The notes beneath the pieces are model-generated. The model saw nothing but the letters and a program-made list of their open reading frames with translations, searched no databases and had not been told where the DNA came from. From contig CAYLOJ010000002.1 in assembly GCA_964385285.1 (NCBI GenBank), forward strand, positions 67,246 to 131,245: 64,000 nt of DNA. Reading direction: 5' to 3'. The position numbers were made by a program, and so were the translations under genes. Positions 9,575-41,023 of this stretch are shown here, piece after piece (the stretch's first letter is position 1; each line of letters opens with the position of its first letter). This DNA comes from an uncultured Gammaproteobacteria bacterium. Lineage in GTDB: Bacteria > Patescibacteriota > Patescibacteriia > UBA9570.

Positions 9575-10018
9575 ATGAGTGTTTTTTCCACGATTCAAAC
9601 TGACATGATCTCTGCCTTGAAAAACAAGGATTCAGTTAAGGTCTCAACACTACGTGGAATGAAGTCGGCGATCCAAAAAGATATTATTGATAACAAGGGC
9701 TCGTCTGATGATGATCAGCGAGCTTTTGTTATACTGAAACAAGAAGCCAAGAAGCGCGAAGATTCCATCACCGCATATGCCGCAGCTGGTCGACAAGATT
9801 TGGCTGATCAAGAAACTGCTGAGCTGGAGATTATTCGCTACTATCTTCCAGCACAAATGTCTGAAGCAGATCTCACGGCGCTGATTGTGCCATTGGTGGA
9901 GGCAAGTGCGGATAAGAATTTTGGTGCCTTGATGAAACAAGCAATGCAGGCAGCCAACGGGCAAGCCGATGGTAAATTGGTTTCTGCGGTGCTGAAAAAA
10001 TTACTGGCACAGCAATGA
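9575..10018 (+). CDS. yqeY: GatB/YqeY-domain protein
   Basis: AIQKD...ILKQEAKKREDSI..Y..AGR.DLA..E..E..II..YLP is the YqeY family pattern. It follows rpsU as in Firmicutes. Confidence 0.85.
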   Translation: MSVFSTIQTDMISALKNKDSVKVSTLRGMKSAIQKDIIDNKGSSDDDQRAFVILKQEAKKREDSITAYAAAGRQDLADQETAELEIIRYYLPAQMSEADLTALIVPLVEASADKNFGALMKQAMQAANGQADGKLVSAVLKKLLAQQ

Positions 10019-13000
10019 AAAAACATACACTGAAACGTGCCATACAACTCTTCGCCATTTCCAGTTTTGGTTGGGTAATCAGTGCCCAGTTTGCCTTTGC
10101 TCAAGTGAATACTGCGTATGACGGGTTTATTTTGGGTGACGCTTCTCCTATCGATATTATTATTGCCATTATCAACTGGACCTTGGCCATTTTGGCGTTG
10201 ATCGCAGTAGTGATTGTGCTCTGGGGTGGGCTCACCTGGATGTTTTCCCAGGGAGATGAAGAAAAAATTAGTAAAGCCAAGGCCATCTTAAGAAATGGCG
10301 TGATTGGTTTGACTATCGTTTTGGCAGCCTGGGGGATCGCCACCTATGTGATTAACCTATTTTTAGATCTAACTGACGCCTCCACAGCTGATTACATTCC
10401 ACCAGGGGACGTTTATGAACCATCCGATGGCTCACCATTTTATGTGGATCATTCTAATCCACGTGATAATGAGGAGGATGTTCCGCTTTGTCATATTGTT
10501 GCGGTCACGTTTTCGTATCCAGTGAATGAAACATCGATTACTGATAATTCATTCCAAGTCACTGTTGCCCAAGATGCCGCTTCGAATCCAGATGGTGGTC
10601 GTGGTAATAATGAAAGTTGTGCGGATGATGTTCAGTGTTTGTCTGGGATCTGTTCGGATAGTGGTGTTTGTTCAGGTGATCGTGTGGAAGGTTCGTTTGC
10701 CTTTTCTGAGAGTGATTATGCTGCAGTATTTTACCCAGCGGCAGATTATCTAGCTGACACCTTGTACGAAGTAGAATTAAGTACCAGTGTCGAAGGAATT
10801 AATCCAGATACCGGTGCTGTCTATAATCTAACCGCTGGCGATCCGAAGCGCATCTTCAATTTCACTACTGGTAGTAGTACGGATGATATCCCACCAAAGG
10901 TTGATGTCACCAGCGTGACTCCATATCCAAGCGATGGCGATACAGACATGTGTTTGAATCCGACGATTCAGGTATCCTTTTCGGAGAGTTTAGATCCAGC
11001 ATCACCATCCGACGAAAATGTTTGGTTGTATCAAGATATCGCAAGTGGCCCGAGTGATAGTTTAAATATTTCCTCCATTCGATTAACCAGTATTGGTGGT
11101 GAGGCAGATGATACGATCGTCACTTCACCGCAACAAGAATTATCTGAATTTACTGAGTACGGTTTGAATCTATATAGTGGCGATTCGACAACGGAAACAT
11201 TTGAAGGTGGAATTTATGATACGTGTGGTAATCCACTAAGTGGTGATTTTGATGATGACATGGAAGGTAGCCCGATTGATGATTTTGCGGACCCAACCTC
11301 AGCCGGGCTGGAGCAGGCCTTCTGCAGTTGTCTATCCGGTACAGATACGTGCAATGTTGCCGTGGGTGCCGATAGTTGTGCAATCGATGCGGACACCACC
11401 TGTACGTTAGATACGACTTGTTCAGATACGAGTGATGATTATGTAGGGTTTTCGTATCAATGGACCTTTACGACAGGGGATGAACCCTATTGTATTCCTG
11501 ATATCGAAACCATTAGCCAAGAAGATTATTACTATAGTGAAGATTTAGCACCCACTGGTGCAACAGGTAGTGAAGATAGCGGCAAAGTATTGCTGACTGG
11601 TAGCTATCTCTATCCATTCTATGATTTAGATTTCACAAACAACATGTCAGCGGCTGGTATGAACTGTTTCGACACAGATCATGCTGCGAACATGTCCTGT
11701 TTTGTCAGTAATGTTGGTAGTTCTATTATTACTGTGCGTACGCCTGTGCCAAGTCAAACGGGTCGTATTAGTGTTGAGAATAACAACGGTTCAGATTACT
11801 CTTCACAATCAGCGATTATTGATTCGCCATTTATCTTAAATAGTTCACCAACGGGCGGTCCAGCTGGGCAATATGTGACCATTCGTGGCAACAACTTTTT
11901 AGATTACGATCCAGAGGATCCATCGAGCAGCCGTGGCCAAGTATTCTTTGATGATGTTGAAGCTGAGGTTTTGTGTACAGATGGTTGGGATGATGATCAA
12001 ATTATTGTCCGTGTACCTGATGGTTTTGCCGTAGATGCACAACCATTAATGCAAGTCATCACCACTGAAGGTCGCTATAGTAACCAGGAGGGATTTGCCA
12101 TAACGGATGGTGAACCGGGTCCTGGGCTTTGTGAAATTGTGCCGAGCTGCAGCGATACAGGATTAGATGACATTACTGCCGTCGGTGAAAATTTTGGTGC
12201 AGATGGCACGGTCTATTTTGATCCGAGTGATGGTGATTATGTGGAAGGTGTCGTGAGTCAATGGGATGTTTACAATCCTACTTATGCTAGCCAAACTGTG
12301 GTGACAGACTCTACTCCTGTGACGGAGCGTGACGTGTACAATTTTACTGCTGCAAACAATGATGGGATTAGTAACGGTTTAGATTTTGAGATTACCTGTT
12401 CAGAGCCACCAAGTTTATTGCAGTATTTTCAATGCGATCTTGAAGCCGATACTTATTATTTGCCGAATCCAACGAATTATTCAGACAATGCCTGTGTGAA
12501 TAGTGTGGTGTATTTTGGATTCACCAATGCGATGGATGATACCTCAGTGGAGAATAATACAGCTGTGTATCGCTGCAATAACGATGATCAATTTGATGAT
12601 AGTGCCTGTACGACTAGAATCGATGGTTCATATGTGTCCGATTATCTGAATGCTGCTTATATCGGTGGAGATAGTGCTGAATTGCTGAACGGCACGCGAG
12701 ATATTGATGCCGACGGCGATACCGATGCAAGCGATGCATACAGCGCGTACACATTCTATCCTGACGGTGGTTTTGCAGCTGGCTACTACTATAAAGTGGA
12801 TGTTCCAATCACGACAACGAATCGTGACGGCGTACAATTAGATTCTGATTATAGTTGGCATTTCCAGGTTCGTGATGACGCTACCAACTGTGTGGCTGAT
12901 TATCTGGCGTTATCCCCGGCCACTGAACGTGTGAATTCCTACGATAGTTACGATGCTTGTATTGATAACACTACTTTTGAAGGAACTAGTTATTCTTTCC

Positions 13001-16000
13001 GCGCTCGTCCAGCTACTGCAGAATGTCTAGTACTAGATGATGCAGGGGATTACGAATGGGAGATTACTCAACCTGCCTCGACGGATATTCTAAAATTTGG
13101 CGATAATGAAACGAGCGGTGATAACCCCGGCACAAGCACTTCAGATACATCTACAATCGGATACAATACGGTCTGTTTACAAGGCGAAGAGGAAGATAAT
13201 GACGGTTTAGCAACTGTCAGTGCTAGCTTGCTGGATCCTGCCGATGGCAGCGTAGCCGCCAGTGACAGTTCAGATGTTGAAGTGGATTTTGGTTATTGCA
13301 CTCAAGATAGTGATTGTTATACCGATTCCTGTCGTGATACTTATTGTGATGCCGTCACATCACACTGTGCACCCGATATTACAAGTTTCACACCAGACAA
13401 TGCTTCCGGAGCTGATGTTGGTCCCGGTGGATGCGTTAGCTTAAATGGCTGTTACTTTGGATCGAGTCAAGATGAGGGTGGTTCCTGCACCTGTACCGAC
13501 TTAAGTAGTGAAGAAACCTGTACGATTGATGAAGGTGGAGTTGCTTGTTTATTACAAGGCGCTATTGATAGCTGCACATTAGGTCAAGATTTTTGTACAC
13601 TCGATAGCACCTGTTCCACCGAATCGGCATCAGCGAATTATGATTTAGGGTTTTTCCGTGGGTGTGATTGTACGACGACAGAAACCTCGCCGCGCACCTG
13701 TCGCGTGGCTGAGGGCGAAACTCAATGTGAGGTTGCTGGCACAGAAACCTGTTCTCCAACCATGACAGCATCGAACGGCACCTATACCGCTGGAGGTAGT
13801 GGTGAGGTCGCATTTGATACGACTACTGCATCCTATCCTTCGACGGTGATCTGTGGAGACGTTTGGGATCAAGATCAAGTGATTGTACAAGTGCCTGCCG
13901 ATGGTTCTGTTGCACCTGGTGACTACGCATTGAATTTAACTAGCTACTACGACTTGAGTGATACATATGGTACGGCATCCGGAGACGCTAGTGATTGTAC
14001 CGTCGGTAGTGATCCAACAGCATGTCTGTGTCGTGTCGATCCAGACTCTGGTCATGAAGGTGATACTAGTGATCTATACGGTGAGAACTTTAGTGTGCTA
14101 AGCGGGCATAACGAAAAAGTTACTTTTGATGGTCCATTAAGTAGGGTTGAAACAGATGGCACTGAGACCTGGGTAGACGATAATGTGATTACTAGTGCAG
14201 TTGTCCCGGATGGGGCGGTTAGTAGCGATGATGGTGTGCAATTGGAAAGTGATGTTGGCGATAGTAATGCACTGGATTATGCGGTCAGTTGCAGCTCCAA
14301 TTTAGATTGCGCAACAGGTTGTTGTAGCGCTGGCCAGTGTTCTTCAGCCGAGATTTGCAATGCATGTGAAAATGATACCGATTGTTCTTATGGACAATGT
14401 GCATCGGCTTGTGTAAGTGGTACTTGTGCCCCTTATATTTATGAGGTTAGTCCAGATACAGGCGCAGTAGGCCAGCCAGTTACGTTCCAAGGTTGCCATT
14501 TAGGAACTTACTATGACCCATCGCTTTACACTCCTGGCAGTCAGGTGACCATAGATGGTATCGTTGCTGACTTAGCTTGTAATGCAACGGATTCTTGGAA
14601 TAACTTACGCGTCATTGCAACCATTCCAGATGGCGTTTTCTCCGATGCAACTACAGACAGTGCCTTAGCACAAATTCAGCAGGTCTCTACGAGTAATGGT
14701 ACTCAAGTTGCTCAATTGAGTAATCAAGTACAATTTAATCGAGATGATAGTTGTTCTGAGGTCAATCTTCCAGTTTTGTGCGATGCGGACCCAGCGTATA
14801 GTCCGGTGCAAACATTGGCAGATAGCGTTGCAAATATAGAATTGAGTGGTGAAAATTTTAATGATGAATCGGATGGCTATTGCACCTGTACAACGGATTT
14901 AGGAGATTGCGATATTGATGAAGGTGGCACCTCCTGCACCGTCAGTAGCTCTACTACCTATTATGTGAATCCGGACTTTAGTTCCGAAACTTGCGCTGAT
15001 GGTAGTGTGGGTGCCGCTACTTCGAATGCGTATAGTTACTACGATGGCACGCTTGGATATTGTGTCTATACAGATCCGGATGACAGTAGTATTACCTGTA
15101 ACATTGCGGTTGGCGCCAGTACGTGTACGATTAGTAGCTCCGATACTTGTTACGCAGATGAAGCTGATCCAACTACAACTTGCACTGCGGCACTATCTAA
15201 TTTTACTGCGTTAGATGGCTCGGTACAGTACTTTGATGATCTAGAGGCCACGATTGATTGGTCTCAATACTATAGTACTCAATATATTACTGACGTTCCT
15301 GAGGGTAGTGAGACGGGCGATGTTCAAGCCATTGCTACGACCTCAGCGGGTACGCAATGCACTAGTAATGGACTGGAGTTTCCGGTTACCTGCTCAAGCT
15401 GTGGCGAATGTGGCAGTACACGCACTAATGCTCTGAACTGTAATTTAGAATATGATCCTGCCTTTGGCAGTTGCACAGCGGACACCACCGGTTTCTGTCG
15501 TGCCAATACGGGTTCCTGCTGTAACCAAACGAGTTGTTCGTATGATTCCAACGTATCCGATACTGAAGATTTAGGTACCTGTGAAGCACAGCCGTTACTT
15601 GAATTTGATGATCAGGACGCCGATGGCATGAGTGACGATTATGAGTTAACGTTAGGTGGTTATGACAGCACATTGCAGGATACGGATGGCGACGGAACCA
15701 TCGATTCTGATGAGAGTGGTTTATTCAACAATAATAATGCCTTAACAACAATTGACTCCGTAACGTATCCTACACCAAATGCCACTGATGTGTGTTCGAA
15801 TGCAGAGATTAAAATTCAATTCAATCAACCAATTACGACCAGTGACGTATTTAATCTAAACGATAATGATGTGACCGCCGATGATCCTGATACGGATATC
15901 GATGAGTCCGTGGTAGATGATTTGTTTACTGATGATGTAGCCCCCGAAGATATTGATTTTACAGACTATATCTATTTGCGTGCAGCCACGGGAGCTGACC

Positions 16001-18255
16001 CACTAACCAATAACACTACCGTGTTAAGTCATATTAGTATTTCTAGTGACGGTACGGTATTAACGCTGGAGCGCAATCGCAACATCGGGTTTAGTCGGGA
16101 TTTTGAAATCATTATCCGCAGTAATGATGCGGTTGTTGGTGGAACAGATCATCACTCAGGAATTGTAGATGCCGAAACCGGTGTCGCAGTTGGTTGCACA
16201 ACAGAAATGGATACGCTTGGCTTATGTAATGAGGGTTATATTCGCTATACCTTCACTACCAGTAGTCGGTCAGTGTATGAAGATAGTTGTGGCCCCTCTT
16301 ATGTATTGTTAGAAGCAGATAGTCAGTCGTTTATGGATAAAGACTATACCTTTAGTGAATCTGGCCAAGAGGAAGATATGAATGCCACCGTTTACGCTGT
16401 AGGTGTGGATGGTTATGCTGACAACGGCTTAACAGATGCCAACAGTGATGGTGTAGATGACGGAGTAGATGATCAACCGATCACTCGTATTGATGATGGC
16501 GTGGATGCTGGTTTTTGGTGGGAGTATGCCTGGGATCCTATTTATGACACCCTAGAAGATTTAGAAGCCGCTGCTTGTCCTGTGGCTGGCATTATCACTG
16601 AGGATGAAGCCGGCAGCTGTAGTTGTGAGATCACAGAAAGTTGTACGATTGCTTTGGGTAGTGAATCGTGCACAACTGGTAATGGCGTGACCTGTTATAC
16701 CGATTCACCGAATGCAGTTTGTGACGCGTTTGATTCAAACTATTCTGCATCCGGTTGTGCTTGTACCGTTGAAGATAGTTGCACAATGTTGGCGGCTGAA
16801 GCGAGCTGCACAACAGACGTGAATGGTACGGATGTAGAGTGTTCTACTGATTCCAGTTCGGCAGTGTGTGACGCAGGTGACACTAATTGGAGCGATGGTA
16901 GCTTTATTGAAGATGAGGCTACTCAAACGTTGACTTCTGATACCCCAGATGCCAACGCGGATAATACCGATACCGTGACCGTGACCGTGACAGGTAGTGG
17001 TTCTGTAGAAGATGGTTGGGGCAATAGCGGCGCCACTACTGATGATTTAACTGATAGCCTGCTCTACGATTTTGTCTACTGCAATCCAGATTATTTAGTC
17101 ACCTACAGCAATACGGCGTATAACTTCTATTGGTCATATTGTCGTGGTACGGATGCACAAAGTGAAAGTTTCTTACCAGAGTTTGACCAGGTCTTTAGTC
17201 GCAGCGATACCGCCATCGATACCGCCTACGGTAGTGATCAAGAATTTATCTATGAAGTAGGATTCAAAGATACACGTGCCGCTACGAATGATCCCACCAC
17301 CAATAATAATATTATTGTCTTGCGGGTTTATCCGAATGACTTAGATGCTGATCTCACTACGCCTGCCGATGCAGTCAATCCGGATCTTTGGTACTTACTT
17401 AACACCAATAATGCTGACGCGCAGACCGCAACCACAACAGTTGATGGGTATGATGCGGTAGAAGTAGGGAATACTGTATATGTCGCTGCCAGTAATTTAG
17501 ATGATACTTCAAGTGTGATTGCGCCGTATGTGTATGTCGTAGCTTACAGTACTGATGCCAGCGAGGAAACGGTGAGCGCTGCCGAGGCTCTCTTGGACGG
17601 CTTCAAATTTAATCGCAATACTACATTGTCGGATGAATGTGCGATTGAAAAGAGTAAATTAGTGGAAGATACTGACCGTGTGACTGATTTAGGGTCAGTA
17701 GCCTATTTACTGAGCGGTTATTACTACAATGATTCCGATGCTAATGACACTGACGATTTCCCAGCTTTGGATAGTGGGTCCTATATTAGTGGTCTAACAA
17801 CATCTGTTTGGCCATCCTGGGCAGATAATCTTGGAGACGAACTAGGACAGGCTCTGCCAACAGATCCAACCAACACATTTAATGATGCCAGTGTTCAATG
17901 TCCGTATGATCCACCAGATTTATCTATTGGTGAAACAGCAGGGACATATTATGACGAGTCTGGTACGTGTTGGGATCCAGTGTTGAAGGATTTCAACGGA
18001 CCTGCAGAATCGCATGTCTACCTCTATCAATATCAAGATGCAGATAACTTCGCTTTGTATTCTAACTTAGAGTACGATGGAACGGGTACGTGGATTAGCG
18101 GTAGTTATAATCCTTGCGATCAGTATGTGGACGGCACTAACGTAGCTACAAGTATTAGTGATTATTCGGATAATGGTTGCAAAACATTTGATTACGCAGT
18201 CGACAATAGTTTGACGACTGATAATACCGTCTATGCCGACCTTTTCGCCGATTGA
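10015..18255 (+). CDS. Giant (2746 aa) secreted, extremely acidic, Cys-rich cell-surface protein. It has a signal peptide, a two-helix T4SS-pilin-like (VirB2/TrbC-type, PF18895-like) N-terminal membrane anchor, multiple IPT/TIG-like beta-sandwich segments, TSP3-like Ca-binding Asp repeats and repeated Cys-rich modules. There is no LPxTG motif and no C-terminal TM segment.
   Basis: Uninterrupted 8.2 kb ORF. N-terminus is MKKHTLKRAIQLFAISSFGWVISAQFAFA, then ...LWGGLTWMFSQGDEEKISKAKAILRNGVIGLTIVLAAWGI. IPT-like stretch (VTIRGNNF...IIVRVPDG). DQDADGMSDD...DTDGDGTIDSDESG. Modules such as CSCLSGTDTCNVAVGADSCAID, CTCTDLSSEETCTIDEGGVACL, CTCTTDLGDCDIDEGGTSCTV and CSCEITESCTIALGSESCTT. Confidence 0.9.
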   Translation: MKKHTLKRAIQLFAISSFGWVISAQFAFAQVNTAYDGFILGDASPIDIIIAIINWTLAILALIAVVIVLWGGLTWMFSQGDEEKISKAKAILRNGVIGLTIVLAAWGIATYVINLFLDLTDASTADYIPPGDVYEPSDGSPFYVDHSNPRDNEEDVPLCHIVAVTFSYPVNETSITDNSFQVTVAQDAASNPDGGRGNNESCADDVQCLSGICSDSGVCSGDRVEGSFAFSESDYAAVFYPAADYLADTLYEVELSTSVEGINPDTGAVYNLTAGDPKRIFNFTTGSSTDDIPPKVDVTSVTPYPSDGDTDMCLNPTIQVSFSESLDPASPSDENVWLYQDIASGPSDSLNISSIRLTSIGGEADDTIVTSPQQELSEFTEYGLNLYSGDSTTETFEGGIYDTCGNPLSGDFDDDMEGSPIDDFADPTSAGLEQAFCSCLSGTDTCNVAVGADSCAIDADTTCTLDTTCSDTSDDYVGFSYQWTFTTGDEPYCIPDIETISQEDYYYSEDLAPTGATGSEDSGKVLLTGSYLYPFYDLDFTNNMSAAGMNCFDTDHAANMSCFVSNVGSSIITVRTPVPSQTGRISVENNNGSDYSSQSAIIDSPFILNSSPTGGPAGQYVTIRGNNFLDYDPEDPSSSRGQVFFDDVEAEVLCTDGWDDDQIIVRVPDGFAVDAQPLMQVITTEGRYSNQEGFAITDGEPGPGLCEIVPSCSDTGLDDITAVGENFGADGTVYFDPSDGDYVEGVVSQWDVYNPTYASQTVVTDSTPVTERDVYNFTAANNDGISNGLDFEITCSEPPSLLQYFQCDLEADTYYLPNPTNYSDNACVNSVVYFGFTNAMDDTSVENNTAVYRCNNDDQFDDSACTTRIDGSYVSDYLNAAYIGGDSAELLNGTRDIDADGDTDASDAYSAYTFYPDGGFAAGYYYKVDVPITTTNRDGVQLDSDYSWHFQVRDDATNCVADYLALSPATERVNSYDSYDACIDNTTFEGTSYSFRARPATAECLVLDDAGDYEWEITQPASTDILKFGDNETSGDNPGTSTSDTSTIGYNTVCLQGEEEDNDGLATVSASLLDPADGSVAASDSSDVEVDFGYCTQDSDCYTDSCRDTYCDAVTSHCAPDITSFTPDNASGADVGPGGCVSLNGCYFGSSQDEGGSCTCTDLSSEETCTIDEGGVACLLQGAIDSCTLGQDFCTLDSTCSTESASANYDLGFFRGCDCTTTETSPRTCRVAEGETQCEVAGTETCSPTMTASNGTYTAGGSGEVAFDTTTASYPSTVICGDVWDQDQVIVQVPADGSVAPGDYALNLTSYYDLSDTYGTASGDASDCTVGSDPTACLCRVDPDSGHEGDTSDLYGENFSVLSGHNEKVTFDGPLSRVETDGTETWVDDNVITSAVVPDGAVSSDDGVQLESDVGDSNALDYAVSCSSNLDCATGCCSAGQCSSAEICNACENDTDCSYGQCASACVSGTCAPYIYEVSPDTGAVGQPVTFQGCHLGTYYDPSLYTPGSQVTIDGIVADLACNATDSWNNLRVIATIPDGVFSDATTDSALAQIQQVSTSNGTQVAQLSNQVQFNRDDSCSEVNLPVLCDADPAYSPVQTLADSVANIELSGENFNDESDGYCTCTTDLGDCDIDEGGTSCTVSSSTTYYVNPDFSSETCADGSVGAATSNAYSYYDGTLGYCVYTDPDDSSITCNIAVGASTCTISSSDTCYADEADPTTTCTAALSNFTALDGSVQYFDDLEATIDWSQYYSTQYITDVPEGSETGDVQAIATTSAGTQCTSNGLEFPVTCSSCGECGSTRTNALNCNLEYDPAFGSCTADTTGFCRANTGSCCNQTSCSYDSNVSDTEDLGTCEAQPLLEFDDQDADGMSDDYELTLGGYDSTLQDTDGDGTIDSDESGLFNNNNALTTIDSVTYPTPNATDVCSNAEIKIQFNQPITTSDVFNLNDNDVTADDPDTDIDESVVDDLFTDDVAPEDIDFTDYIYLRAATGADPLTNNTTVLSHISISSDGTVLTLERNRNIGFSRDFEIIIRSNDAVVGGTDHHSGIVDAETGVAVGCTTEMDTLGLCNEGYIRYTFTTSSRSVYEDSCGPSYVLLEADSQSFMDKDYTFSESGQEEDMNATVYAVGVDGYADNGLTDANSDGVDDGVDDQPITRIDDGVDAGFWWEYAWDPIYDTLEDLEAAACPVAGIITEDEAGSCSCEITESCTIALGSESCTTGNGVTCYTDSPNAVCDAFDSNYSASGCACTVEDSCTMLAAEASCTTDVNGTDVECSTDSSSAVCDAGDTNWSDGSFIEDEATQTLTSDTPDANADNTDTVTVTVTGSGSVEDGWGNSGATTDDLTDSLLYDFVYCNPDYLVTYSNTAYNFYWSYCRGTDAQSESFLPEFDQVFSRSDTAIDTAYGSDQEFIYEVGFKDTRAATNDPTTNNNIIVLRVYPNDLDADLTTPADAVNPDLWYLLNTNNADAQTATTTVDGYDAVEVGNTVYVAASNLDDTSSVIAPYVYVVAYSTDASEETVSAAEALLDGFKFNRNTTLSDECAIEKSKLVEDTDRVTDLGSVAYLLSGYYYNDSDANDTDDFPALDSGSYISGLTTSVWPSWADNLGDELGQALPTDPTNTFNDASVQCPYDPPDLSIGETAGTYYDESGTCWDPVLKDFNGPAESHVYLYQYQDADNFALYSNLEYDGTGTWISGSYNPCDQYVDGTNVATSISDYSDNGCKTFDYAVDNSLTTDNTVYADLFAD

Positions 18256-18895
18256 ACCCACGCCAAATTCTAACTCAGGGGAGCTTGAAGATATCTTTGA
18301 AGATGGCGGCAGCAATCTTTATAATTCGATTCAAACGCAAACTACTGAGCCGGAGTCTTCTGAACAGGATGCTCCAACTTACTCAGTTCAGTCTAGATCC
18401 AATGGGGGTAAGCGCCGGATCCTAATCATTGCCACTTGCGTTCTAGCTCTGCTACTATTAGGTAGTGGTGGGGTGGGATTGTGGCTTTGGCTACAGACCC
18501 GTCCTGCGCCTGATCCAAATCTGATCATCAACAATCCTGTAAATACGAATACGAACACGAATGTGAATACAGAAGAGACCAATACCAATGTGGTCACTGT
18601 TCCGGAAATACCAACCAATACAAACACTACTACCAATACAAACACACAGAACTTTGTTGATGTAGATCACGATGGCCTGTCGGATGAAGAAGAGCTAGTG
18701 GTGAATACCAATCCGAAAAAAAAGGATACCGATGAAGATGGTCTATCAGATCGCGAAGAGGTGAGAGTCTATAACACCGATCCACGTAATCCTGATACAG
18801 ATGGTGATGGCTATAGCGATGGAGATGAAGTGACTAATTTCTATCATCCCAATCACCCAGATCCAAAAAAACGATTATTCGACTTACCACAATAA
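18233..18895 (+). CDS. Single-pass (N-in) membrane protein with an acidic cytoplasmic N-terminus, an Asn/Thr-rich low-complexity linker and three TSP3-like Asp-rich Ca-binding repeats. Overlaps the giant gene's 3' end by 23 nt.
   Basis: TM ILIIATCVLALLLLGSGGVGLWLWL; NTNTNTNVNT...TNTNTTTNTNT; DVDHDGLSDEEE / DTDEDGLSDREE / DTDGDGYSDGDE. Confidence 0.7.
   Translation: MPTFSPIEPTPNSNSGELEDIFEDGGSNLYNSIQTQTTEPESSEQDAPTYSVQSRSNGGKRRILIIATCVLALLLLGSGGVGLWLWLQTRPAPDPNLIINNPVNTNTNTNVNTEETNTNVVTVPEIPTNTNTTTNTNTQNFVDVDHDGLSDEEELVVNTNPKKKDTDEDGLSDREEVRVYNTDPRNPDTDGDGYSDGDEVTNFYHPNHPDPKKRLFDLPQ
18541..18660 (+). repeat. In-frame tandem hexanucleotide-type repeats (AAY-ACR)n encoding an N-T dipeptide low-complexity linker
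   Basis: aatacgaatacgaacacgaatgtgaataca ... accaatacaaacactactaccaatacaaacaca. Confidence 0.6.
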
Positions 18896-18905
18896 CAACA
18901 TTCAT

Positions 18906-20189
18906 ATGGATTTTCCTCAACAGCCCCAAAGTACTACACCATTTCCCGCTGCGCCTCAGCAACCTACCACACCTCCGCCTTTCCCCAATGTGGCTCAGCC
19001 CGGTGGGATGGCTAGTCCGATGATGAATAATGGTCCAATGATGCCGCCGGCAGCTGGCCCCATGCCTGGTGCTACTATGCCACCGATGGGAGCTGTGTCA
19101 CCAAGTTCCACAGTACAGATTCCAATTCAAAGTCATCCAGCCACTTTATCGTCCGACGAGCAGGTTTATACGATGCCTGAGAAGTTTTTGTCTTCCACAG
19201 CCGCTCCTGTCGCGATGCGTCCAAAAAAATCGAATAAAACTGTAACCATTATCTTGGTAGTCCTCATTACGCTAATGATCTTGGCTGCCGTTGGTGGCGT
19301 CCTCTACTATTTCTTAGTGTTATCCAAACAATCTACCACAATCACCGATGCTCAAAATGCCGTTGTGGTGAATAATGCTAATGTAGTGACCAATGCAAAT
19401 AATAGTAATGCCAATACAAACAGTTTGAATCAGAATGGCAACGATAATGCCAATACCAATGCGAATGATAATACCAATACAAATGCCAATGGCAACACGA
19501 ATGTAGTTGCAAATGATAATACCAATACAGTCAATGCCAATACAAACACGAACAGCAATGCGAATGTGAACGCCAATGGCAATACGAATAGTGTTGCCAC
19601 TACCGTAGTTCCACCCAGTGCAAAAGATACGGATGAAGATAGTTTGACCAATGATGAAGAAAAAGTTTGGGGCACAAAGGCTGATCTGCCAGATACCGAT
19701 AATGATGGTTACGCTGATGGTGTAGAAGTATTAGCTGGCTATGATCCGACTAATCCTACCGGTCGTCTGGCTACTAGCGCTTTGGTTGGTACCTTTACGA
19801 ATAGTGAGTATGGCTACACGATGAGCTATCCAAAAGATTGGTTAGCAGAGGCGTTGGCAGAGGGAGATGCGAGTGAGGTGCTATTTACTCCGAATACTCT
19901 TGATCTGACTGGCCAATTTGTCGCGGTCACGGTGACTGCTAATCCGACAGGCCTAACAGCAGTAGATTGGTATACTGATACTGCTAATGTCGATGAAACA
20001 AAAGTTGAAGTGGTCACTAACTTTGCCGGCAAAACGGGAGTATGGAGCGCTGATCGTACTACGGCTTATTATGCAGATTCAAATCATGTCTACGCGGTAA
20101 GTTATCGTTATGGCAGTAGTGATGAACTCTATTTCCCGACAAGTTTTGAGATGATGGTCAAAAGCTTCACTTTAACGGCTGCCAACTAA
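18906..20189 (+). CDS. Paralog-like single-pass membrane protein with a Pro-rich cytoplasmic N-terminus, a TM helix, an Asn-rich hexamer-repeat linker, TSP3-like Asp repeats and a C-terminal globular domain of about 150 aa with no recognisable family
   Basis: PQQPTTPPPFP...MPPAAGPMPGATMPPMGA; TM VTIILVVLITLMILAAVGGVLYYFLVL; NANTNANDNTNTNANGNTN; DTDEDSLTNDEE / DTDNDGYADGVE. Confidence 0.75.
   Translation: MDFPQQPQSTTPFPAAPQQPTTPPPFPNVAQPGGMASPMMNNGPMMPPAAGPMPGATMPPMGAVSPSSTVQIPIQSHPATLSSDEQVYTMPEKFLSSTAAPVAMRPKKSNKTVTIILVVLITLMILAAVGGVLYYFLVLSKQSTTITDAQNAVVVNNANVVTNANNSNANTNSLNQNGNDNANTNANDNTNTNANGNTNVVANDNTNTVNANTNTNSNANVNANGNTNSVATTVVPPSAKDTDEDSLTNDEEKVWGTKADLPDTDNDGYADGVEVLAGYDPTNPTGRLATSALVGTFTNSEYGYTMSYPKDWLAEALAEGDASEVLFTPNTLDLTGQFVAVTVTANPTGLTAVDWYTDTANVDETKVEVVTNFAGKTGVWSADRTTAYYADSNHVYAVSYRYGSSDELYFPTSFEMMVKSFTLTAAN
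19384..19612 (+). repeat. In-frame (AAT-RCN)n hexamer repeat tract encoding an N-A / N-T low-complexity linker
   Basis: aatgccaatacaaac...aatgccaataccaatgcgaatgataataccaatacaaatgccaatggcaacacgaat... Confidence 0.6.
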
Positions 20190-20193
20190 GCGA

Positions 20194-20601
20194 ATGCATC
20201 TAGAAGTGCGCAGAGTCGTGAAAGCGCCATTGTTTACCCCTGCTTTTGCACGCCAGGTACTGCAGGCTGTACGCAAACAGGTGGACTTACCAAAAGCCTG
20301 GAGCGAATTGAGTGTGGTAGTGGTGGGGGATGCAACCATTCGTCGTTTGAACGCTCAGTATCGTCAACAGACTTATATCCCTGATGTCTTGTCGTTTCCC
20401 TACGGACAGGATGGTGGAGAGATTGTGATTGATTATGCCCAAGCCAGACGCCAAGCAGCCCAAAAGCAGGTGGCGCTAAAACATGAATTAGCTTGGTTGT
20501 TGGTCCATGGCATCCTACATGTGATGGGTTATGATCATGAAACGGCAGCTGATGCCAAAGTGATGCGTCCTTTAGAACAAAAGATTTTGCGCTATGTTTA
20601 A
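20194..20601 (+). CDS. ybeY: rRNA maturation endoribonuclease YbeY
   Basis: HGILHVMGYDHE zinc-binding H-x3-H-x5-H motif at about 135 aa. Confidence 0.9.
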   Translation: MHLEVRRVVKAPLFTPAFARQVLQAVRKQVDLPKAWSELSVVVVGDATIRRLNAQYRQQTYIPDVLSFPYGQDGGEIVIDYAQARRQAAQKQVALKHELAWLLVHGILHVMGYDHETAADAKVMRPLEQKILRYV

Positions 20602-20971
20602 GCTAAAGAAATTGCAGGCCAGTTTTCGCTATGCCTGTCAGGGATTGCTCTATGTTTGGCGTCAGGAGCAAAATTTTCGCATTCAGAGCGGCGTTGCCTT
20701 GTTGGTCGTGATTGGTATGTTAGTGTTTCGCGTTACGCTCGGGGAAGCCATTATCCTCACGATGATGATCATCTTCGTATTGGTACTAGAAGTGGTCAAT
20801 ACTATTTTTGAGAAATTGGTAGATATCTTAAAGCCACGTTTACACAGTTATGTTGGGGTAATTAAAGATATGATGGCCGCGACCGTCCTGTTAGCAGCCG
20901 CGGGGTCAGTCGCGATTGCCCTAATGGTGTTCATACCGTATTGCCTCGAATTACTGCAATTGCTACAATAG
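20594..20971 (+). CDS. dgkA: Diacylglycerol/undecaprenol kinase (DgkA family) membrane protein
   Basis: Three TM segments and E..N..FE..VD...P.......KD..AA.VL.AA, typical of prokaryotic DgkA; the ybeY-dgkA adjacency matches Firmicutes. Confidence 0.8.
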   Translation: MFKLKKLQASFRYACQGLLYVWRQEQNFRIQSGVALLVVIGMLVFRVTLGEAIILTMMIIFVLVLEVVNTIFEKLVDILKPRLHSYVGVIKDMMAATVLLAAAGSVAIALMVFIPYCLELLQLLQ

Positions 20972-20975
20972 AGCT

Positions 20976-22229
20976 ATGAGTAAAGGCGATATTATTACTG
21001 GATTAGACATTGGCTCCACCACCATCCGTGTTGCGGTCGGTCAGATGAACCCACATGATAACGAGTTGCACATTATTGGTGCAGCTGAACATCCGGCTGA
21101 GGGAATTAACAAAGGGGTAGTGACGAGCATTGAAGATGCAGTGGCAAGTATTTCCGGTGCTTTAGACAAAGCTGAGCGGATGACTGGTATTCCGATCGAG
21201 CGCGCTTATGTCAGTGTAAATGGAAGTCATATCATCTGTCAGGATAGCCATGGAGTGGTAGCTGTTTCTAAAGCTGATGGAGAGATTCGTGAAGAGGATG
21301 TACAACGTGCCATTGAAGCTGCACAGACAGTGGCTACTCCACCAAATTACGAAATTCTACATGTCATCCCACGACAGTTTCAAGTAGATAATCAAGCCGG
21401 CGTCAAAGATCCAGTCGGAATGACTGGGATTAAACTAGAAGTGGATGCGCAAATTATTCTTGGTTTAACATCACAGGTCAAAAACCTAACGAAGTGTGTG
21501 TATCGTACCGGTACAGATATCCAAGATCTCGTCTTAGGTGTATTAGGGGTCAGTGAGGCTGTCTTAACTAAACGCCAAAAAGAGCTGGGTGTTGCTTTGG
21601 TGAATCTTGGAGGATTAACCACTAGTGTAATGGTGTTTGAAGAGGGCGACATGATTCATACGAAGATCTTGCCGATTGGTTCTGGACATATCACCAATGA
21701 TATTGCGATTGGACTACGTACCTCCGTTGATATTGCTGAGGTGATCAAGGCAAAATATGGTACAGCTGTCCCAGAAGATGTAGCCAAACATGAAGAGATT
21801 GATTTGCGTGAAATTGATCCGAACGAAAATAGTCGAGTATCGCGCAAAGAGGTTGCTGAAATTATCGAAGCCCGTTTAGAAGAGATGTTTACTTTGGTCA
21901 ATAAAGAGCTGAAAGCGATTAATCGTCATGGGATGTTACCAGCCGGTATTGTCTTAACTGGTGGTGGTGCAAAATTAACCGGTATTATTGAAGTGGCCAA
22001 AAAACAATTCTCACTACCGGCAGCTGTGGGCACGGCTCGAAAATTTAAAACTGCGATTGATAAGATTGAAGACCCTGTATTCGCTACAGCTCTGGGCTTA
22101 GTAGTATGGGGTGAAAATTTGGGTGGGGATACTCGCAATTCTGGCGGTCTGGCATCCTTAGCACGATTTTCAGCGGTAGGCGATGCGACCAATAAAATGA
22201 AGAAGTGGTTCAAGAGTTTGCTGCCTTAG
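20976..22229 (+). CDS. ftsA: Cell division protein FtsA
   Basis: Actin-fold ATPase with GLDIGSTTIRVAVG, and the following gene is ftsZ. Confidence 0.95.
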   Translation: MSKGDIITGLDIGSTTIRVAVGQMNPHDNELHIIGAAEHPAEGINKGVVTSIEDAVASISGALDKAERMTGIPIERAYVSVNGSHIICQDSHGVVAVSKADGEIREEDVQRAIEAAQTVATPPNYEILHVIPRQFQVDNQAGVKDPVGMTGIKLEVDAQIILGLTSQVKNLTKCVYRTGTDIQDLVLGVLGVSEAVLTKRQKELGVALVNLGGLTTSVMVFEEGDMIHTKILPIGSGHITNDIAIGLRTSVDIAEVIKAKYGTAVPEDVAKHEEIDLREIDPNENSRVSRKEVAEIIEARLEEMFTLVNKELKAINRHGMLPAGIVLTGGGAKLTGIIEVAKKQFSLPAAVGTARKFKTAIDKIEDPVFATALGLVVWGENLGGDTRNSGGLASLARFSAVGDATNKMKKWFKSLLP

Positions 22230-22262
22230 TAATAGACCTCCTCTGTCTTCGTTCCTCAGACA

Positions 22263-22290
22263 TCTCCTCCTCTTTTAGGAGGAGATTTAA
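22263..22290 (+). terminator. Hairpin ATCTCCTCCT-ctttt-AGGAGGAGAT after ftsA (a second weaker hairpin lies at about 22313-22336). Candidate attenuator/terminator between ftsA and ftsZ.
   Basis: Perfect 10-bp inverted repeat, with a weak T-tract after it. Confidence 0.4.
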
Positions 22291-22420
22291 ATTAGAATGA
22301 TCTCAATTACAACCCCTCTCCAAAAAGAGGGGAGGGGTGGCCGAGAGGCTGGGAGCGGTCTGTTAGAGTAAGTAGTGAGATAGGGTTATTTTTTTATGAG
22401 TACAAATTGTATTCAATGTG

Positions 22421-22449
22421 TTGACTTAAATGCAATAACCCAGTAGTAT
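22421..22449 (+). promoter_or_regulatory. Candidate promoter TTGACT-N17-TAGTAT upstream of ftsZ
   Basis: -35 at 22421-22426, -10 at 22444-22449, ftsZ ATG at 22491. Confidence 0.45.
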
Positions 22450-22490
22450 TCTTATTTGTATAGTTTAGCATTGAACAAAAATAGTGTTAT

Positions 22491-23642
22491 ATGCCTAATG
22501 GTAAATATATGGAAGTAAAACCTGATGTAGAAACCTTTGCCAAAATCTTGGTCGTTGGTGTTGGTGGGTCCGGTGGATCTGCTGTACAACGCATGATTGA
22601 TAGTGGATTAAAAGGGGTGGAATTTGTCGCTGTGAATACGGATGCTCAAGCCCTACACCATAATCCAGCCAAACATAAAATCCATATTGGTAAAAGCACT
22701 ACCCGTGGATTAGGCGCTGGAATGGATCCTTCGGTGGGAGCTAAGGCTGCTGAAGAAACCAATGAAGAGTTAAGCACAATGCTGAAAGGTGCCGATATGG
22801 TTTTTGTGACTTGTGGTTTAGGTGGTGGTACGGGTTCTGGAGCGGGTCCAATTATTGCTCGTATGGCTCGCGATGCTGGCGCCTTAACAGTTGCAGTTGT
22901 CACCAAGCCGTTTGCATTTGAAGGTGCTCAACGCGGTCAGATCGCAGACGGTGCGTATAATGAAATGGCCGATGCAGTGGATACCATCATTACTATCCCT
23001 AATGATCGTTTACTCCAGATCATTGATAAGAAGACTTCATTATTGGAAGCATTCAAAACTGTCGATAATGTGTTATTCCAAGGCGTGCAAGGAATCTCTG
23101 ATTTAATTACTGTTCCTGGCTTAATTAACGTTGACTTTGCGGACGTAAAATCAGTGATGGCTAATGCTGGGTCTGCCTTAATGGGTATTGGTCGTGCAAC
23201 AGGTGAAAATCGTGCTGTGGATGCAGCGAAGGCAGCGGTAGACAGTCCTTTACTAGAATTGAGCATTGACGGCGCTAAAGGCATTCTATTCACCATTACT
23301 GGTGGTCCTAACTTAGGGATGTATGAAGTCAACGAAGCTGCTCGTGTAATTACTGAATCGGCGGATCCATCGGCTAAGATTATTTTCGGCGCCAACGTTG
23401 ATGAAGCCATGGGAGACGAAATTAAAATTACGGTGGTTGCTACCGGCTTCGGTCAGCCAGCGAAAGCGGCTAAAAAAATTCAGGCCGTTCGTCCCAGCCC
23501 ATTTAGTAAGCGAGATGAAGTCGAATCTCCAGTGGCTAGCCAAACTTTCCGCAACAAAAATATTATGGATGAGGCGCCGGTTGATAATTCAGCCGATGAG
23601 GATCTAGAAGTTCCTGCCTTCATTCGGAAGAAGATGATGTAA
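22491..23642 (+). CDS. ftsZ: Cell division GTPase FtsZ
   Basis: Tubulin signature GGGTGSG and the NTDAQAL motif; C-terminal conserved tail (DLEVPAFIRKK). Confidence 0.95.
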   Translation: MPNGKYMEVKPDVETFAKILVVGVGGSGGSAVQRMIDSGLKGVEFVAVNTDAQALHHNPAKHKIHIGKSTTRGLGAGMDPSVGAKAAEETNEELSTMLKGADMVFVTCGLGGGTGSGAGPIIARMARDAGALTVAVVTKPFAFEGAQRGQIADGAYNEMADAVDTIITIPNDRLLQIIDKKTSLLEAFKTVDNVLFQGVQGISDLITVPGLINVDFADVKSVMANAGSALMGIGRATGENRAVDAAKAAVDSPLLELSIDGAKGILFTITGGPNLGMYEVNEAARVITESADPSAKIIFGANVDEAMGDEIKITVVATGFGQPAKAAKKIQAVRPSPFSKRDEVESPVASQTFRNKNIMDEAPVDNSADEDLEVPAFIRKKMM

Positions 23643-23784: not shown

Positions 23785-26445
23785 ATGAGGAGGATCCATC
23801 CCGTAGCCAGTTTATTAGTCAGTCTAGGCATGTGTTTGGCTGCCGCTCCGGCCTTTGCGGGGGACACCTTTTTTGTAAACAGTGTCGATGGCAACGATGG
23901 CAATAACTGTCGTTCGGCTAATGCCGCTTGTTTAACTATTGCCCATGCGACTGATTTGTTAACGGCACAATCCAAACCGCAAAATAGTGTTTTGAAATTA
24001 TCCGGCACGTTCGCTGAAACGATTTCACTTTCATCAAGTTCTGTAGACACTGATCAACTCCTAGACGGATTGCGCATTACGGCTACGGATACTGATCAAA
24101 AGCCAACCATTGACGGCACTGGTCAGGATTATGCAGTTTCATTGGTTGATATTCATAACGCGACTGTGGATCATTTAATCGTTACTGGTGCGGCCCATGG
24201 TATCAATGTTAGTGGGTCAGGCTCTAACTATATTTCAGATGCTTCGATTCATCATAATACTGTGACTGGGTTAGTGGGCAATCCATCGTTTACCGCTATT
24301 ACATTATCTAATGCTAAGCAGTCATCGGTAGCGCATAATCAGATTGAGAATCAAGCTCAGGTGACAACAGATGAAACGGATTATGTCCTTAGTCGCAGTA
24401 TTTATCTGTATCGCGTGCGTAATTCAGTCGTAAAATCTAATCGTATCGTTGATGTAGGCATTACCAACACGTTGACTGCGGCAGCTTCTCATTCAACCTA
24501 TCTTTACGGTATCTACGTATCGCAGTCCGTGGATATGATCGTTAAGTCCAATGTTGTGCGGCGCTTAACTAATCTAGAAACCAGTACCGTAGCTGGCACA
24601 AGTCAGTATTTGTATACCTACGGAATTTGGACAGGTAGCTCCGCGGATGTCATTGCCAATCACAATACCGTGGATACAGTGACGTCTACAGTTATTGGTG
24701 ATCTCGCAGGAACCAGTGCGTATAGTTATGCTTACGGAATGACACTGACTGATCTTCATGCTGGCGAAGGCACCAACTTGCTTAATCACAATACTATTAC
24801 AGATGTAACGGCATCGGCAAACACGGCAAGTACATATAGCTATGGCACAGGTATTTCCGTCGATTATACACGCACCTTGTCGATGTTACATAATGTCATC
24901 AAACGTGTGGCCGCTACTGCGAGTGGCTCAATTGCGAATGGTACCTATGATGCAATCAGTTACGGTATTAATGGGCCAAATTACAGTAGCGATATCATTA
25001 TTGATGATACGACTATTCGTAATTTAGATGCGAATGTGGACTACTCTGGAAACGACACTAGCGGCTATGCAGTTGTGAAGGGGATTGTGTCAGCCTATTC
25101 TACTGTGCAGGTTGCTAATAATAGTGTGCGTGATCTGGCTTGGTCAATTAATAACCATGCTGCTGCTAACGCAAATGAATATGCTTATCTCTATGGTATT
25201 GATGTTGGCAATGGTGTGCAGGTGGAGATTCTCAATAACACAGTTCGTGACTTAACTGCGAGCTATACTACAACATCGGCCGGTGGCTATTTTGTACCCT
25301 ATACATTTGGAATTAATTCACAGAATGTAGATACAGCTCTGGTGCAGGGGAATACAGTGCGTGATACTGCAATCAGCGTTACCAACAGTGATCCTACGGA
25401 TGCCAGTGTTATCTACAGCTATCTCTATCTGATCAATCTTGGTAGTATTTCAAATTTAACTGCAGCAAATAACGTTCTGCAGGATAATACCATGACTATC
25501 AATGGTGGAAATGCCAATCCGGTCTACAACTACGTCTACGGAATCAATTTAAGCAATTCAGAAGGAACAATTAATAATAATCGTGTATCAGGATTAACCG
25601 CTTCGGCCAGTAGCGTCAATGGGACGGCTACACAATATATCTATAGTTTGAACGCGAGTAGCTTAGGCCAGTTGGTGATGAATAATAACGTAATCAAGAA
25701 GCTGACCGCAACGGTGGATGCCAACAATCCAAGCCAGTATGTATACGGGATTTATATCACGAATGCCAAACCGGTATATGTGAATGCTAATGAATTCAGA
25801 AACATTCAAGCTACCGCTCCATCTAACCAAAGTGTGATCGGTATGTACCTCAATACGGATGTGAGTAACGGTCGTATTTTGAATAACCTTATGTTGGGCA
25901 AGAGCGATTATAGTGGTAGTGGTGATTACATTGGGCTTTATCTACCCAGTGATTCCAATACAGATCTAGATGTCATCAATAATACCTTTGCCAACTGGCG
26001 TTACCCCATCAAATTAGATGGCGGTAAGAGTGTCACATTGAAGAACAACATCTTTGCGGCTATCACAAACACCGGATATGCCATGGCTATTCGCTATGAC
26101 CATATCAATCAAGATCAATTTAGATCCGATTACAACCTATTCTATAATACACTTGGGAAAACTCGGGCGATCTATGACACGGATGCAGCTGCTGAGATAC
26201 ATTTCGGTGATTGGTCAAATGCCGGTGGTTCCTATGGTTACGATTTGCATTCGCTCTATAGCAAACCAAGACTAACTGCGAGTGGTCGTTTGAAGTCTAA
26301 TTCTAAGGCGCATGACCGCGGTACCGACAATTGGAATTATGCAACAGACAGTCTTGAGTATTCCTTGATCAGTACAGATCTGAATGGCACAGCACGTCCA
26401 GGTGGTGATGGCCAGGTTGATATTGGCGCTGACGAGCAGGAATAG
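23785..26445 (+). CDS. Secreted right-handed parallel beta-helix (PbH1/pectate-lyase-fold) repeat protein, 886 aa, with a roughly 45-aa periodic 'Y-x-Y-G-I ... N-x-V' repeat
   Basis: Signal peptide MRRIHPVASLLVSLGMCLAAAPAFA. Repeats NHNTVTG / HNQIEN / NSVVKSNRIVD / NHNTITDV. The motif (STYLYGIYVS, SQYLYTYGIW, SAYSYAYGMT, YAYLYGIDVG, VYNYVYGINL, QYVYGIYIT) recurs 10 or more times. Confidence 0.8.
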   Translation: MRRIHPVASLLVSLGMCLAAAPAFAGDTFFVNSVDGNDGNNCRSANAACLTIAHATDLLTAQSKPQNSVLKLSGTFAETISLSSSSVDTDQLLDGLRITATDTDQKPTIDGTGQDYAVSLVDIHNATVDHLIVTGAAHGINVSGSGSNYISDASIHHNTVTGLVGNPSFTAITLSNAKQSSVAHNQIENQAQVTTDETDYVLSRSIYLYRVRNSVVKSNRIVDVGITNTLTAAASHSTYLYGIYVSQSVDMIVKSNVVRRLTNLETSTVAGTSQYLYTYGIWTGSSADVIANHNTVDTVTSTVIGDLAGTSAYSYAYGMTLTDLHAGEGTNLLNHNTITDVTASANTASTYSYGTGISVDYTRTLSMLHNVIKRVAATASGSIANGTYDAISYGINGPNYSSDIIIDDTTIRNLDANVDYSGNDTSGYAVVKGIVSAYSTVQVANNSVRDLAWSINNHAAANANEYAYLYGIDVGNGVQVEILNNTVRDLTASYTTTSAGGYFVPYTFGINSQNVDTALVQGNTVRDTAISVTNSDPTDASVIYSYLYLINLGSISNLTAANNVLQDNTMTINGGNANPVYNYVYGINLSNSEGTINNNRVSGLTASASSVNGTATQYIYSLNASSLGQLVMNNNVIKKLTATVDANNPSQYVYGIYITNAKPVYVNANEFRNIQATAPSNQSVIGMYLNTDVSNGRILNNLMLGKSDYSGSGDYIGLYLPSDSNTDLDVINNTFANWRYPIKLDGGKSVTLKNNIFAAITNTGYAMAIRYDHINQDQFRSDYNLFYNTLGKTRAIYDTDAAAEIHFGDWSNAGGSYGYDLHSLYSKPRLTASGRLKSNSKAHDRGTDNWNYATDSLEYSLISTDLNGTARPGGDGQVDIGADEQE

Positions 26446-36161: not shown

Positions 36162-36172
36162 AGGTATTAAAT

Positions 36173-40964: not shown

Positions 40965-41023
40965 AAGACCTCCGGGTTGTGGAAGAGCATAAGGCTGCTG
41001 CAGAGTAAGGAGTATTGCCCGGA

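Follow-up and report, generated by a model that had tools for sequence, protein, structure and literature searches.

The stretch analysed here (hereafter the window) comprises 64,000 nucleotides (nt) of contig CAYLOJ010000002.1 (assembly GCA_964385285.1, positions 67,246 to 131,245 of the forward strand), and one of its open reading frames (ORFs) encodes a giant protein of 2746 amino acids (aa) in which a Cys-rich module of about 40 residues occurs seven times. We find that this module is a genuine disulfide-rich insert domain with sharp limits, which has had no name so far and is restricted to a single uncultivated lineage, and that its copies are cassettes nested in the loops of immunoglobulin (Ig)-like domains, not beads on a string. 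Taken as a whole, the data make it probable that we are dealing with a lineage-specific extracellular mini-domain of ~40 residues with three disulfides, which would act as a brace or decoration of an adhesive stalk.

An earlier note on this DNA, made by reading the sequence, had already proposed a repeated Cys-rich module of roughly 40 aa in six or more copies. All seven peptide strings that it quoted are found in the translation of the giant ORF (nt 11314-16881), and a pattern scan combined with a profile hidden Markov model (HMM) built from the copies gives seven modules, including M3 (aa 1217-1246), which had been overlooked. In a six-frame scan of the window the module is confined to the giant ORF. 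The copies, numbered M1 to M7 with their cysteines as C1 to C6, and the insertion sites A to D in which they lie are as follows:

Giant ORF, 10015..18255, plus strand: 2746 aa, holds all seven modules.
M1 (C1 to C6), 11323..11421, plus strand, aa 437-469: single 6-Cys cassette, site A.
M2, 13486..13614, plus strand, aa 1158-1200: 7-Cys variant with an extra Cys between C5 and C6, site B.
M3, 13663..13752, plus strand, aa 1217-1246: 5-Cys variant without C6, site B.
M4, 14881..14994, plus strand, aa 1623-1660: 5-Cys variant with Tyr at C5, site C.
M5, 15061..15183, plus strand, aa 1683-1723: 5-Cys variant with Tyr at C2, site C.
M6, 16618..16722, plus strand, aa 2202-2236: canonical 6-Cys module, site D.
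M7, 16756..16869, plus strand, aa 2248-2285: canonical 6-Cys module in tandem with M6, site D.

The copies share the short consensus G-[YF]-C1-T-C2-x(5-9)-C3-x-[IV]-x2-G-x3-C4-x(7-10)-C5-x(5-10)-C6, and the wider family supports the fuller form G-[YF]-C1-T-C2-T ... [DE]-[TS]-C3-x-[IV]-x2-G-x2-[ST]-C4-x-[LIV]-x4-T-C5-[YT]-[LV]-D-x4-T-C6-D, with 4-7 Cys per module among the family instances. Of the conserved spacing first claimed, the C3-x8-C4 interval stood, being the sole invariant one, while the remaining spacings vary, and the regular expression written down at the time proved too strict, fitting M6 only. The acidic context thought to be conserved is a property of the whole protein, with Asp plus Glu (D+E) making up 17.1% of the modules and 17.9% of the rest; Thr, on the other hand, is enriched, at 19.4% in the modules vs 9.9% elsewhere. 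We also weighed a unit shifted in phase, from C4 of a module to C3 of its successor, and rejected it, since modules that stand alone open with C1-x-C2 and, with six Cys, are complete in themselves.

The giant protein is strongly biased in composition (D, T and S each exceed 10%), the original regular expression matches one copy only, and the DNA repeat search found only chance-level matches of 18-30 nt among the copies. All three points would suit a composition artefact, in which segments of a Thr/Ser/Asp/Cys-rich low-complexity protein look alike and form no homologous domain. The statistics speak otherwise. The core hairpin C-x-[IVM]-x2-[GA]-x3-C occurs 7 times vs 0.09 expected (2000 shuffles, maximum 3), and a relaxed version of the full pattern occurs 6 times vs 0.0025 expected from shuffles. 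When each module was scored with an HMM made from the other six, it obtained 13-26 bits, where full shuffles of the same composition average -3 to -6; shuffled acidic sequence rich in Cys thus aligns much more poorly than the modules do. Even shuffles in which the Cys positions were held fixed equalled the real leave-one-out score in just 0-3 of 300 trials for every module, and the similarity therefore exceeds that imposed by Cys spacing. Indeed, when site-specific alignments of orthologues were compared profile against profile with hhalign, 17 of the 21 module pairs reached 86-98% probability (range over all pairs 32-98%; E 1e-4 to 1e-14), with M6 vs M7 at 98.1% (E 8.5e-14), whereas four other Cys-rich stretches of the giant protein, used as a composition control, gave <=2.2% against the modules. 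Moreover, orthologues with as little as 32% overall identity still have the modules at corresponding positions and with their Cys unchanged. A composition artefact is thus already refuted, and we leave it next to no probability; the lack of any DNA-level repeat instead indicates that the module copies are old and do not stem from recent duplications.

A database search returned an identical protein in NCBI (P0001) and 31 full-length orthologues with 32-70% identity; those that carry a name are 'Ig-like domain-containing protein' from Candidatus Kerfeldbacteria or Patescibacteria. A look-up of the exact sequence of the giant protein matched no contig. A family HMM finds 192 module instances across 36 family proteins. 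Column identity is 0.99 for module Cys, 0.41 for the other module positions and 0.535 for the rest of the protein. In a profile search with 79 module instances against 1.84 billion (1.84e9) representative proteins, 15 hits were obtained, 11 of them members of the giant-protein family and 4 matching the hairpin core only; these four (P0037, P0038, P0040 and P0041) are unrelated bacterial Ig-repeat surface proteins. We also scanned GTDB (one genome per species, 185,579 species) with the alignment of the PSI-like/IPT region described below. The scan detected 13 loci, most of them in metagenome-assembled genomes titled Kerfeldbacteria or Patescibacteria, with four titled 'uncultured Gammaproteobacteria' and one 'Bacteroidota'. 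The literature searches returned general context only and no description of the module family.

Where the modules sit became apparent from the full-length alignment of the 31 orthologues, in which every module Cys is either a Cys or part of a whole-module gap. M4 and M5 are present in 31/31 orthologues, M2 in 25/31, M1 and M3 in 21/31 each, M6 in 20/31 and M7 in 19/31. Insertion into Ig-like (Big_5, IPT/TIG) loops, together with variation in copy number among orthologues, had been missed by the earlier note. The sites and their hosts are:

Big_5 Ig-like host, 10885..11481, plus strand, aa 291-489: Pfam Big_5 (PF13205) covers aa 291-389, and the last loop is site A.
IPT/TIG host, 13366..13989, plus strand, aa 1118-1325: the loop after 'NGCYFG' is site B.
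Second Ig-like (IPT/E-set type) host, 14767..15399, plus strand, aa 1585-1795: the loop after 'GENF' is site C.
Site D, 16576..16914, plus strand, aa 2188-2300: the loop between 'PVAGIIT' and 'F-x-ED...Q-x-x-TAD' of an unclassified domain.

Site A holds 0 or 1 module, its loop being module-free in 10 of the 31 orthologues. The Big_5 host scores 41.4 bits in the whole protein against a gathering cut-off of 23.6, and with M1 cut out it still scores 30.2 bits (E 8e-7), above that cut-off. At site B, no module is present in six orthologues ('GCYFGPTRGTDGKITFG'), one 6-Cys module in four, a pair with 12 Cys in twenty, and four modules with 20 Cys in a single one, P0009. Three of the six insert-free site-B domains exceed the gathering cut-off of 20.9 bits for Pfam TIG (PF01833), with 30.0, 24.2 and 23.7 bits, and a fourth falls just under it with 20.6 bits, which shows directly that it is an IPT domain that the modules break up. 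Site C always has at least two modules. A Foldseek search with a model of its host gave weak matches, all of them Ig-like or E-set, among them NFAT1 RHD-C (8r3f_A; probability 0.99, target-normalised template modelling (TM) score 0.60), aligned across the insert, as well as CGTase, plexin C1 and SiiE. At site D, 0 to about 4 modules are found, with 0, 6, 12, 16, 18 or 22 Cys (10 in one truncated sequence). A fifth insertion site exists in P0014, where an incomplete M4/M5-like module (aa 1985-2052), which brings 4 additional Cys, takes the place of an acidic segment of the window protein. That segment (aa 1868-1902, window 15616-15720), DQDADGMSDDYE...DTDGDGTIDSDE, looks by eye like TSP3-type Ca-binding sequence, although Pfam is silent on it. 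Since a module can be cleanly deleted from its loop, its two ends must lie close together.

The cysteines themselves vary in a manner that points to pairing. For every site and orthologue we counted the Cys enclosed by the invariant residues that flank the site, and the insert count was even in 124/124 site-by-orthologue cases (0, 6, 8, 10, 12, 14, 16, 18, 20 and 22). All losses of Cys concern pairs or coupled positions. P0008 has jointly lost C3 (to Gly) and C4 (to Tyr) of M4, and in P0005 and P0014 the C3-x8-C4 hairpin has been duplicated as a unit; the joint loss and the duplication together argue for a C3-C4 bond. Two variants bear on the remaining Cys: modules in P0015 and P0019 keep only C1, C3, C4 and C6, without C2 and C5, and other four-Cys modules lack C1 and C2. 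From these patterns we infer that C3 bonds to C4 and that C1 and C2 bond to C5 and C6. A nested arrangement (C1-C6, C2-C5) would explain the variants most economically and is the one we favour, though not with confidence. The same logic appears to extend across modules. C5 of M4 and C2 of M5 are coupled in 31/31 orthologues: P0022-28 and P0031 have Cys at the two positions, and the others have it at neither (Y/Y; L/V; L/A). In the 21 closest orthologues a 7-Cys M2 is always paired with a 5-Cys M3, the site total being 12 Cys in 20 of them. The odd cysteines of M4/M5 (5+5) and of M2/M3 (7+5) would accordingly be expected to bond from one module to its neighbour.

The predicted structure is in agreement with a compact disulfide-rich unit. 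AlphaFold2 models M6 alone, with the 79-sequence module alignment, at a predicted local distance difference test score (pLDDT) of 88.3, and aa 1574-1800 (host, M4 and M5, 31 orthologues) at a pLDDT of 91.5 and a predicted TM score (pTM) of 0.64. In the latter model each module has two or three beta strands, which carry C1-x-C2, C3, and C4 to C5. The invariant nine-residue span from C3 to C4 with Gly at +5 would fit a beta-turn of two residues that brings the Cys opposite one another. Granulin-type beta-hairpin-stack mini-proteins and laddered hairpin peptides, in which successive cystines pin short hairpins, would be comparable. As for known folds, the suggestion that the module belongs to no named family was borne out: the module profile had 0 hits against PDB sequences at E<=10, Pfam on the 79 module instances gave nothing significant, Foldseek with the single-module model against PDB gave one hit at E=9 and hence no fold relative, and a search of the whole giant protein against Pfam and NCBIfam reported only T4SS_pilin and Big_5.

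The domains that the module most invites comparison with are the EGF-like ones (including calcium-binding EGF, cbEGF; Pfam EGF clan). They too have ~40 residues with six Cys, three disulfides and small beta-hairpins, and they too occur outside the cell, where giant proteins of adhesion or of the matrix contain them as single or tandem copies. We therefore considered a divergent EGF-like, cbEGF or TB domain that binds Ca2+ via acidic residues, a reading to which the overall acidity of the protein and a match of EGF_3 at E 0.046 in 1 of the 79 module instances would lend themselves. That lone E-value is at chance level for 79 scans against 24,736 models, however, and on the whole protein no EGF or TB family is found by Pfam at E<=1. 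The protein has zero matches to the PROSITE patterns EGF_1 and EGF_2 (PS00022 / PS01186) and likewise to EGF_CA and Asx-hydroxylation (PS01187, PS00010), the signatures of the cbEGF consensus D/N-x-D/N-E/Q ... D/N ... Y/F. TB domains have eight Cys including a CCC triplet; no such triplet is present anywhere in the giant protein, nor is there a Pfam TB hit. The CxC of the module lies at its start, at C1-C2, and not at C4-C5, and the sole match to generic EGF spacing straddles M6 and M7 and encloses an extra Cys. The C3-C4 clamp, if correctly deduced, conflicts with the EGF connectivity of 1-3, 2-4 and 5-6, D+E is not enriched, and the PDB profile and Foldseek searches returned nothing of this kind. 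EGF domains are, finally, strung between other domains, while the module sits inside Ig-domain loops. At the sequence level an EGF-like or TB identity is thus largely refuted, and we regard it as very unlikely; the same results leave the calcium binding raised in the earlier note with no specific support, there being neither acidic enrichment nor a cbEGF or Asx-hydroxylation signature.

The high Thr content invites another thought. Thr or Ser stands beside almost every consensus Cys (C1-T-C2-T, [TS]-C3, [ST]-C4-T, T-C5, T-C6) and the model is rich in beta strands, as would be the case if the module were no generic brace but formed a flat beta surface lined with Thr and stiffened by its cystines, comparable perhaps to the TCT arrays of beetle antifreeze protein (TmAFP), and bound ice, a mineral lattice or polysaccharide. 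We consider this highly improbable: the spacings vary and follow no regular 12-residue solenoid period, the modules occur as isolated excursions of one to four copies and form no long array, and Foldseek gave no antifreeze fold match.

Returning to the reading of the module as a disulfide-bonded extracellular cassette, the proposal that it is disulfide-stabilised has strong, albeit indirect, backing from the predicted extracellular location, the ~99% conservation of the Cys, the even counts and the coupled losses, and we expect the bonds to form in vivo. Bacteria from the CPR (Candidate Phyla Radiation) are reported to encode widely, and to be enriched in, an MdbA-like thiol oxidoreductase and VKOR (10.1101/335083). 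Several points nevertheless weigh against parts of this reading. Sequential (C1-C2, C3-C4, C5-C6) and crossed (C1-C5, C2-C6) connectivities are alternatives to the nested one. The single-module model contains just one short hairpin by DSSP, as opposed to the longer strands seen in context. With the inserts cut out, the IPT-like hosts of the window protein itself have no Pfam TIG match, and no fold match of the host at site C reaches E 1e-3. At its non-Cys positions the module exceeds the remaining protein in variability only to a moderate degree (column identity 0.41 vs 0.535) and is thus not hypervariable. Many CPR bacteria live in anoxic groundwater, which makes extracellular disulfides less certain, and no DsbA- or VKOR-like gene was recognised in the window, where the neighbours were scanned with Pfam and the other ORFs screened for Cys and CxxC only.

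The last two points, the first of them known from the literature context only, would also suit reduced cysteines that bind metals or minerals (Zn, Fe, Cu, sulfide surfaces), making the module metallothionein-like or a device for mineral attachment, and the high Cys density fits either chemistry. We nevertheless judge metal binding improbable. Insert Cys totals are divisible by 2 and not consistently by 3 or 4 (6, 10, 14, 18 and 22 all occur, with 0/124 odd), and the Cys disappear in defined pairs (C3 with C4; M4-C5 with M5-C2), as is expected of bonded partners. The modules contain no His or CxxC ligand motifs, AlphaFold2 folds them confidently without metal, and the CPR oxidoreductase repertoire just cited argues for bonded Cys as well.

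How the carrier protein is attached to the cell can be read from its N-terminus, where two features were found:

Sec-type signal peptide, plus strand, aa 1-29 (...AFA|Q): read from the sequence.
T4SS_pilin (VirB2/TrbC-like) two-helix domain, 10156..10350, plus strand, aa 48-112: Pfam PF18895.

The PF18895 match has an E-value of 4.1e-9 and 36.8 bits vs a gathering cut-off of 26.6, a weak pilin-like match from NCBIfam falls on the same N-terminus, and the loop joining the two hydrophobic helices is K-rich. The helical hairpin would be the anchor of the giant protein in the cytoplasmic membrane, and together with the signal peptide it implies that the ~2,600 remaining residues are probably extracellular. 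By composition the giant protein is very acidic and rich in Cys (D 12.4%, T 10.6%, S 10.4%, C 4.0%, K+R 2.4%, D+E 17.3%), the Cys content being <=2.8% in every other ORF of the window. A VirB2-like T4SS_pilin (T4SS, type IV secretion system) is usually a small pilin; here it forms the N-terminus of a protein of 2746 aa, and there are no T4SS genes nearby. Two distant proteins, P0034 and P0035, have the same anchor together with Big_5 and TIG, and additionally Pfam PF13948.

These features suggest the following working model. The module would be built from short beta-hairpins, its core being the invariant C3-x8-C4 hairpin with an x-G turn, and would be plugged into one Big_5, two IPT/TIG-type and one unclassified beta domain of the very acidic giant protein, which the VirB2-like N-terminal hairpin would hold in the cytoplasmic membrane. 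The cassettes could stiffen and protect the Ig-like domains and add exposed surface, bracing a stalk as rigid knobs resistant to protease and force and giving it a variable face, and by gaining or deleting them (0-4 per site) lineages could tune attachment or the structure of the cell envelope. CPR bacteria make up a large share of bacterial diversity and live attached to other cells, with surface machinery that is almost wholly unannotated. By analogy with the large Cys-rich surface proteins of other CPR bacteria, a role in adhesion or envelope architecture is plausible (PMC4736985). We can also imagine, speculatively and with more doubt than conviction, a new disulfide-rich fold used as a plug-in brace, in which single copies are self-closed while the neighbours M4/M5 and M2/M3 swap Cys and become covalently linked. 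The Ig loops of this envelope protein, passed on by vertical descent, would then become struts linked to each other, and the protein might be an organelle for host attachment or cell shape in Kerfeldbacteria-type episymbionts, retuned by copy number.

The Peregrinibacteria, groundwater CPR members and thus ultrasmall symbiotic bacteria, have very large secreted Cys-rich proteins that vary among strains, were proposed to confer rigidity or attachment, and were compared to Myxococcus Cys-rich repeats and pappalysin (PMC4736985). They show no sequence relation to the module, as the 1.84e9-protein search returned only the giant-protein family. The sole resemblance found at the sequence level is to the two-Cys hairpin of the four outside matches, P0037, P0038, P0040 and P0041, whose 'C-T-I-P-A-G-x3-C-x-V' is nearly identical to the C3-C4 core, an x-G turn again lying between two Cys at a distance of nine residues (CTIALGASTC and CTIAVGASSC in P0040 vs CTIALGSESC and CNIAVGASTC in the giant protein). 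These matches are weak (E 1e-6 to 5e-4) and cover approximately profile positions 15-44 only. The hairpin of the outside proteins differs in being integral to an Ig-like repeat of ~90 residues with two Cys, of which there are dozens, and the repeats match Big_1 or Big_2 weakly. A clamped hairpin of one type is thus met again in very different settings, and the likeness could be convergence on a common hairpin.

Not all Cys-rich sequence in the giant protein belongs to the module. Two further entries stand apart from it:

12-Cys PSI-like stretch, 14290..14427, plus strand, aa 1426-1471: directly before an uninterrupted IPT domain, not a module copy.
Second Cys-rich family (C-x5-C-x4-C-x4/5-C type), 10606-10680, 13288-13374 and 14284-14433: aa 198-222, 1092-1120 and 1424-1473.

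The earlier note had singled out a distinct stretch, CSSNLDC...SYGQC (aa 1426-1462), and rightly so, for it falls in a family separate from the module. All 12 Cys of the PSI-like stretch are invariant in 31/31 orthologues, and hhalign gives it <=1.2% probability against the modules. A profile of this stretch with the IPT domain that follows (14290-14739, aa 1426-1575) matches the human MET PSI-IPT1 unit (5lsp_A) at E 3.5e-4, with a best single-domain i-Evalue of 0.063, which suggests a PSI-IPT-like unit at aa 1426-1575 in a CPR bacterium. As in plexins, semaphorins and MET, a PSI-like Cys knot here precedes an IPT domain, and IPT domains host the modules. PSI, however, lies between domains and the module within a loop, and the PSI-like stretch represents a Cys-rich family different from the module. 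Within the second Cys-rich family the similarity is weak (hhalign 27-65%), there is no relation to the module, and at least two of its members directly precede an IPT-type domain.

The module thus qualifies as a new domain family: its boundaries are clear, its structure is predicted with confidence, and from its consensus and 192 instances an annotation model such as a Pfam entry could be made. Its scope is limited to one narrow lineage with no cultured member. At ~40 residues it is a compact target for structural biology, the natural series with 0 to 4 modules per site offers a handle on how inserts affect stalk mechanics or binding, and adjacent modules, with their linked Cys changes, exemplify the rewiring of disulfides in evolution.

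Lastly, we looked at the surroundings of the giant gene, which always lies between yqeY and ybeY-dgkA-ftsA-ftsZ:

Conserved neighbourhood of the giant gene, window 9575-23642.

The order HisRS, YqeY, giant protein, a ~205-aa protein, a ~390-aa protein, YbeY, DAGK, FtsA and FtsZ is kept down to 39% identity of the giant protein, which indicates that its gene belongs to the core of a narrow lineage and is inherited vertically there. The yqeY stop overlaps the start of the giant gene. The first downstream protein (~205-220 aa), whose start overlaps the end of the giant gene by 23 nt, has bacterial TSP3 repeats both in the window and at the P0021 locus, and the second conserved one has ~390-430 aa; the two small proteins may be partners of the giant protein. 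Just downstream of ftsZ, window positions 23785-26445 (plus strand) encode a protein of 886 aa with a clear signal peptide and no Pfam match at E<=0.01.

Elsewhere in the window, a thiamine pyrophosphate (TPP) riboswitch (Rfam RF00059, 61.6 bits) at 36205-36302 on the minus strand overlaps the listed 5' end of the ORF 35193-36236 (minus strand), which starts with a hydrophobic leader of lipoprotein-like type. The GC content is 0.52-0.54 at 36000-42000, 1-2000 and 62000-64000 vs about 0.45 in the rest of the window, and at 37.4-39.2 kb long ORFs overlap on opposite strands (37467-38987, plus; 37521-39149, minus). The GC-deviant regions with the opposite-strand overlap may represent foreign or compositionally distinct DNA.

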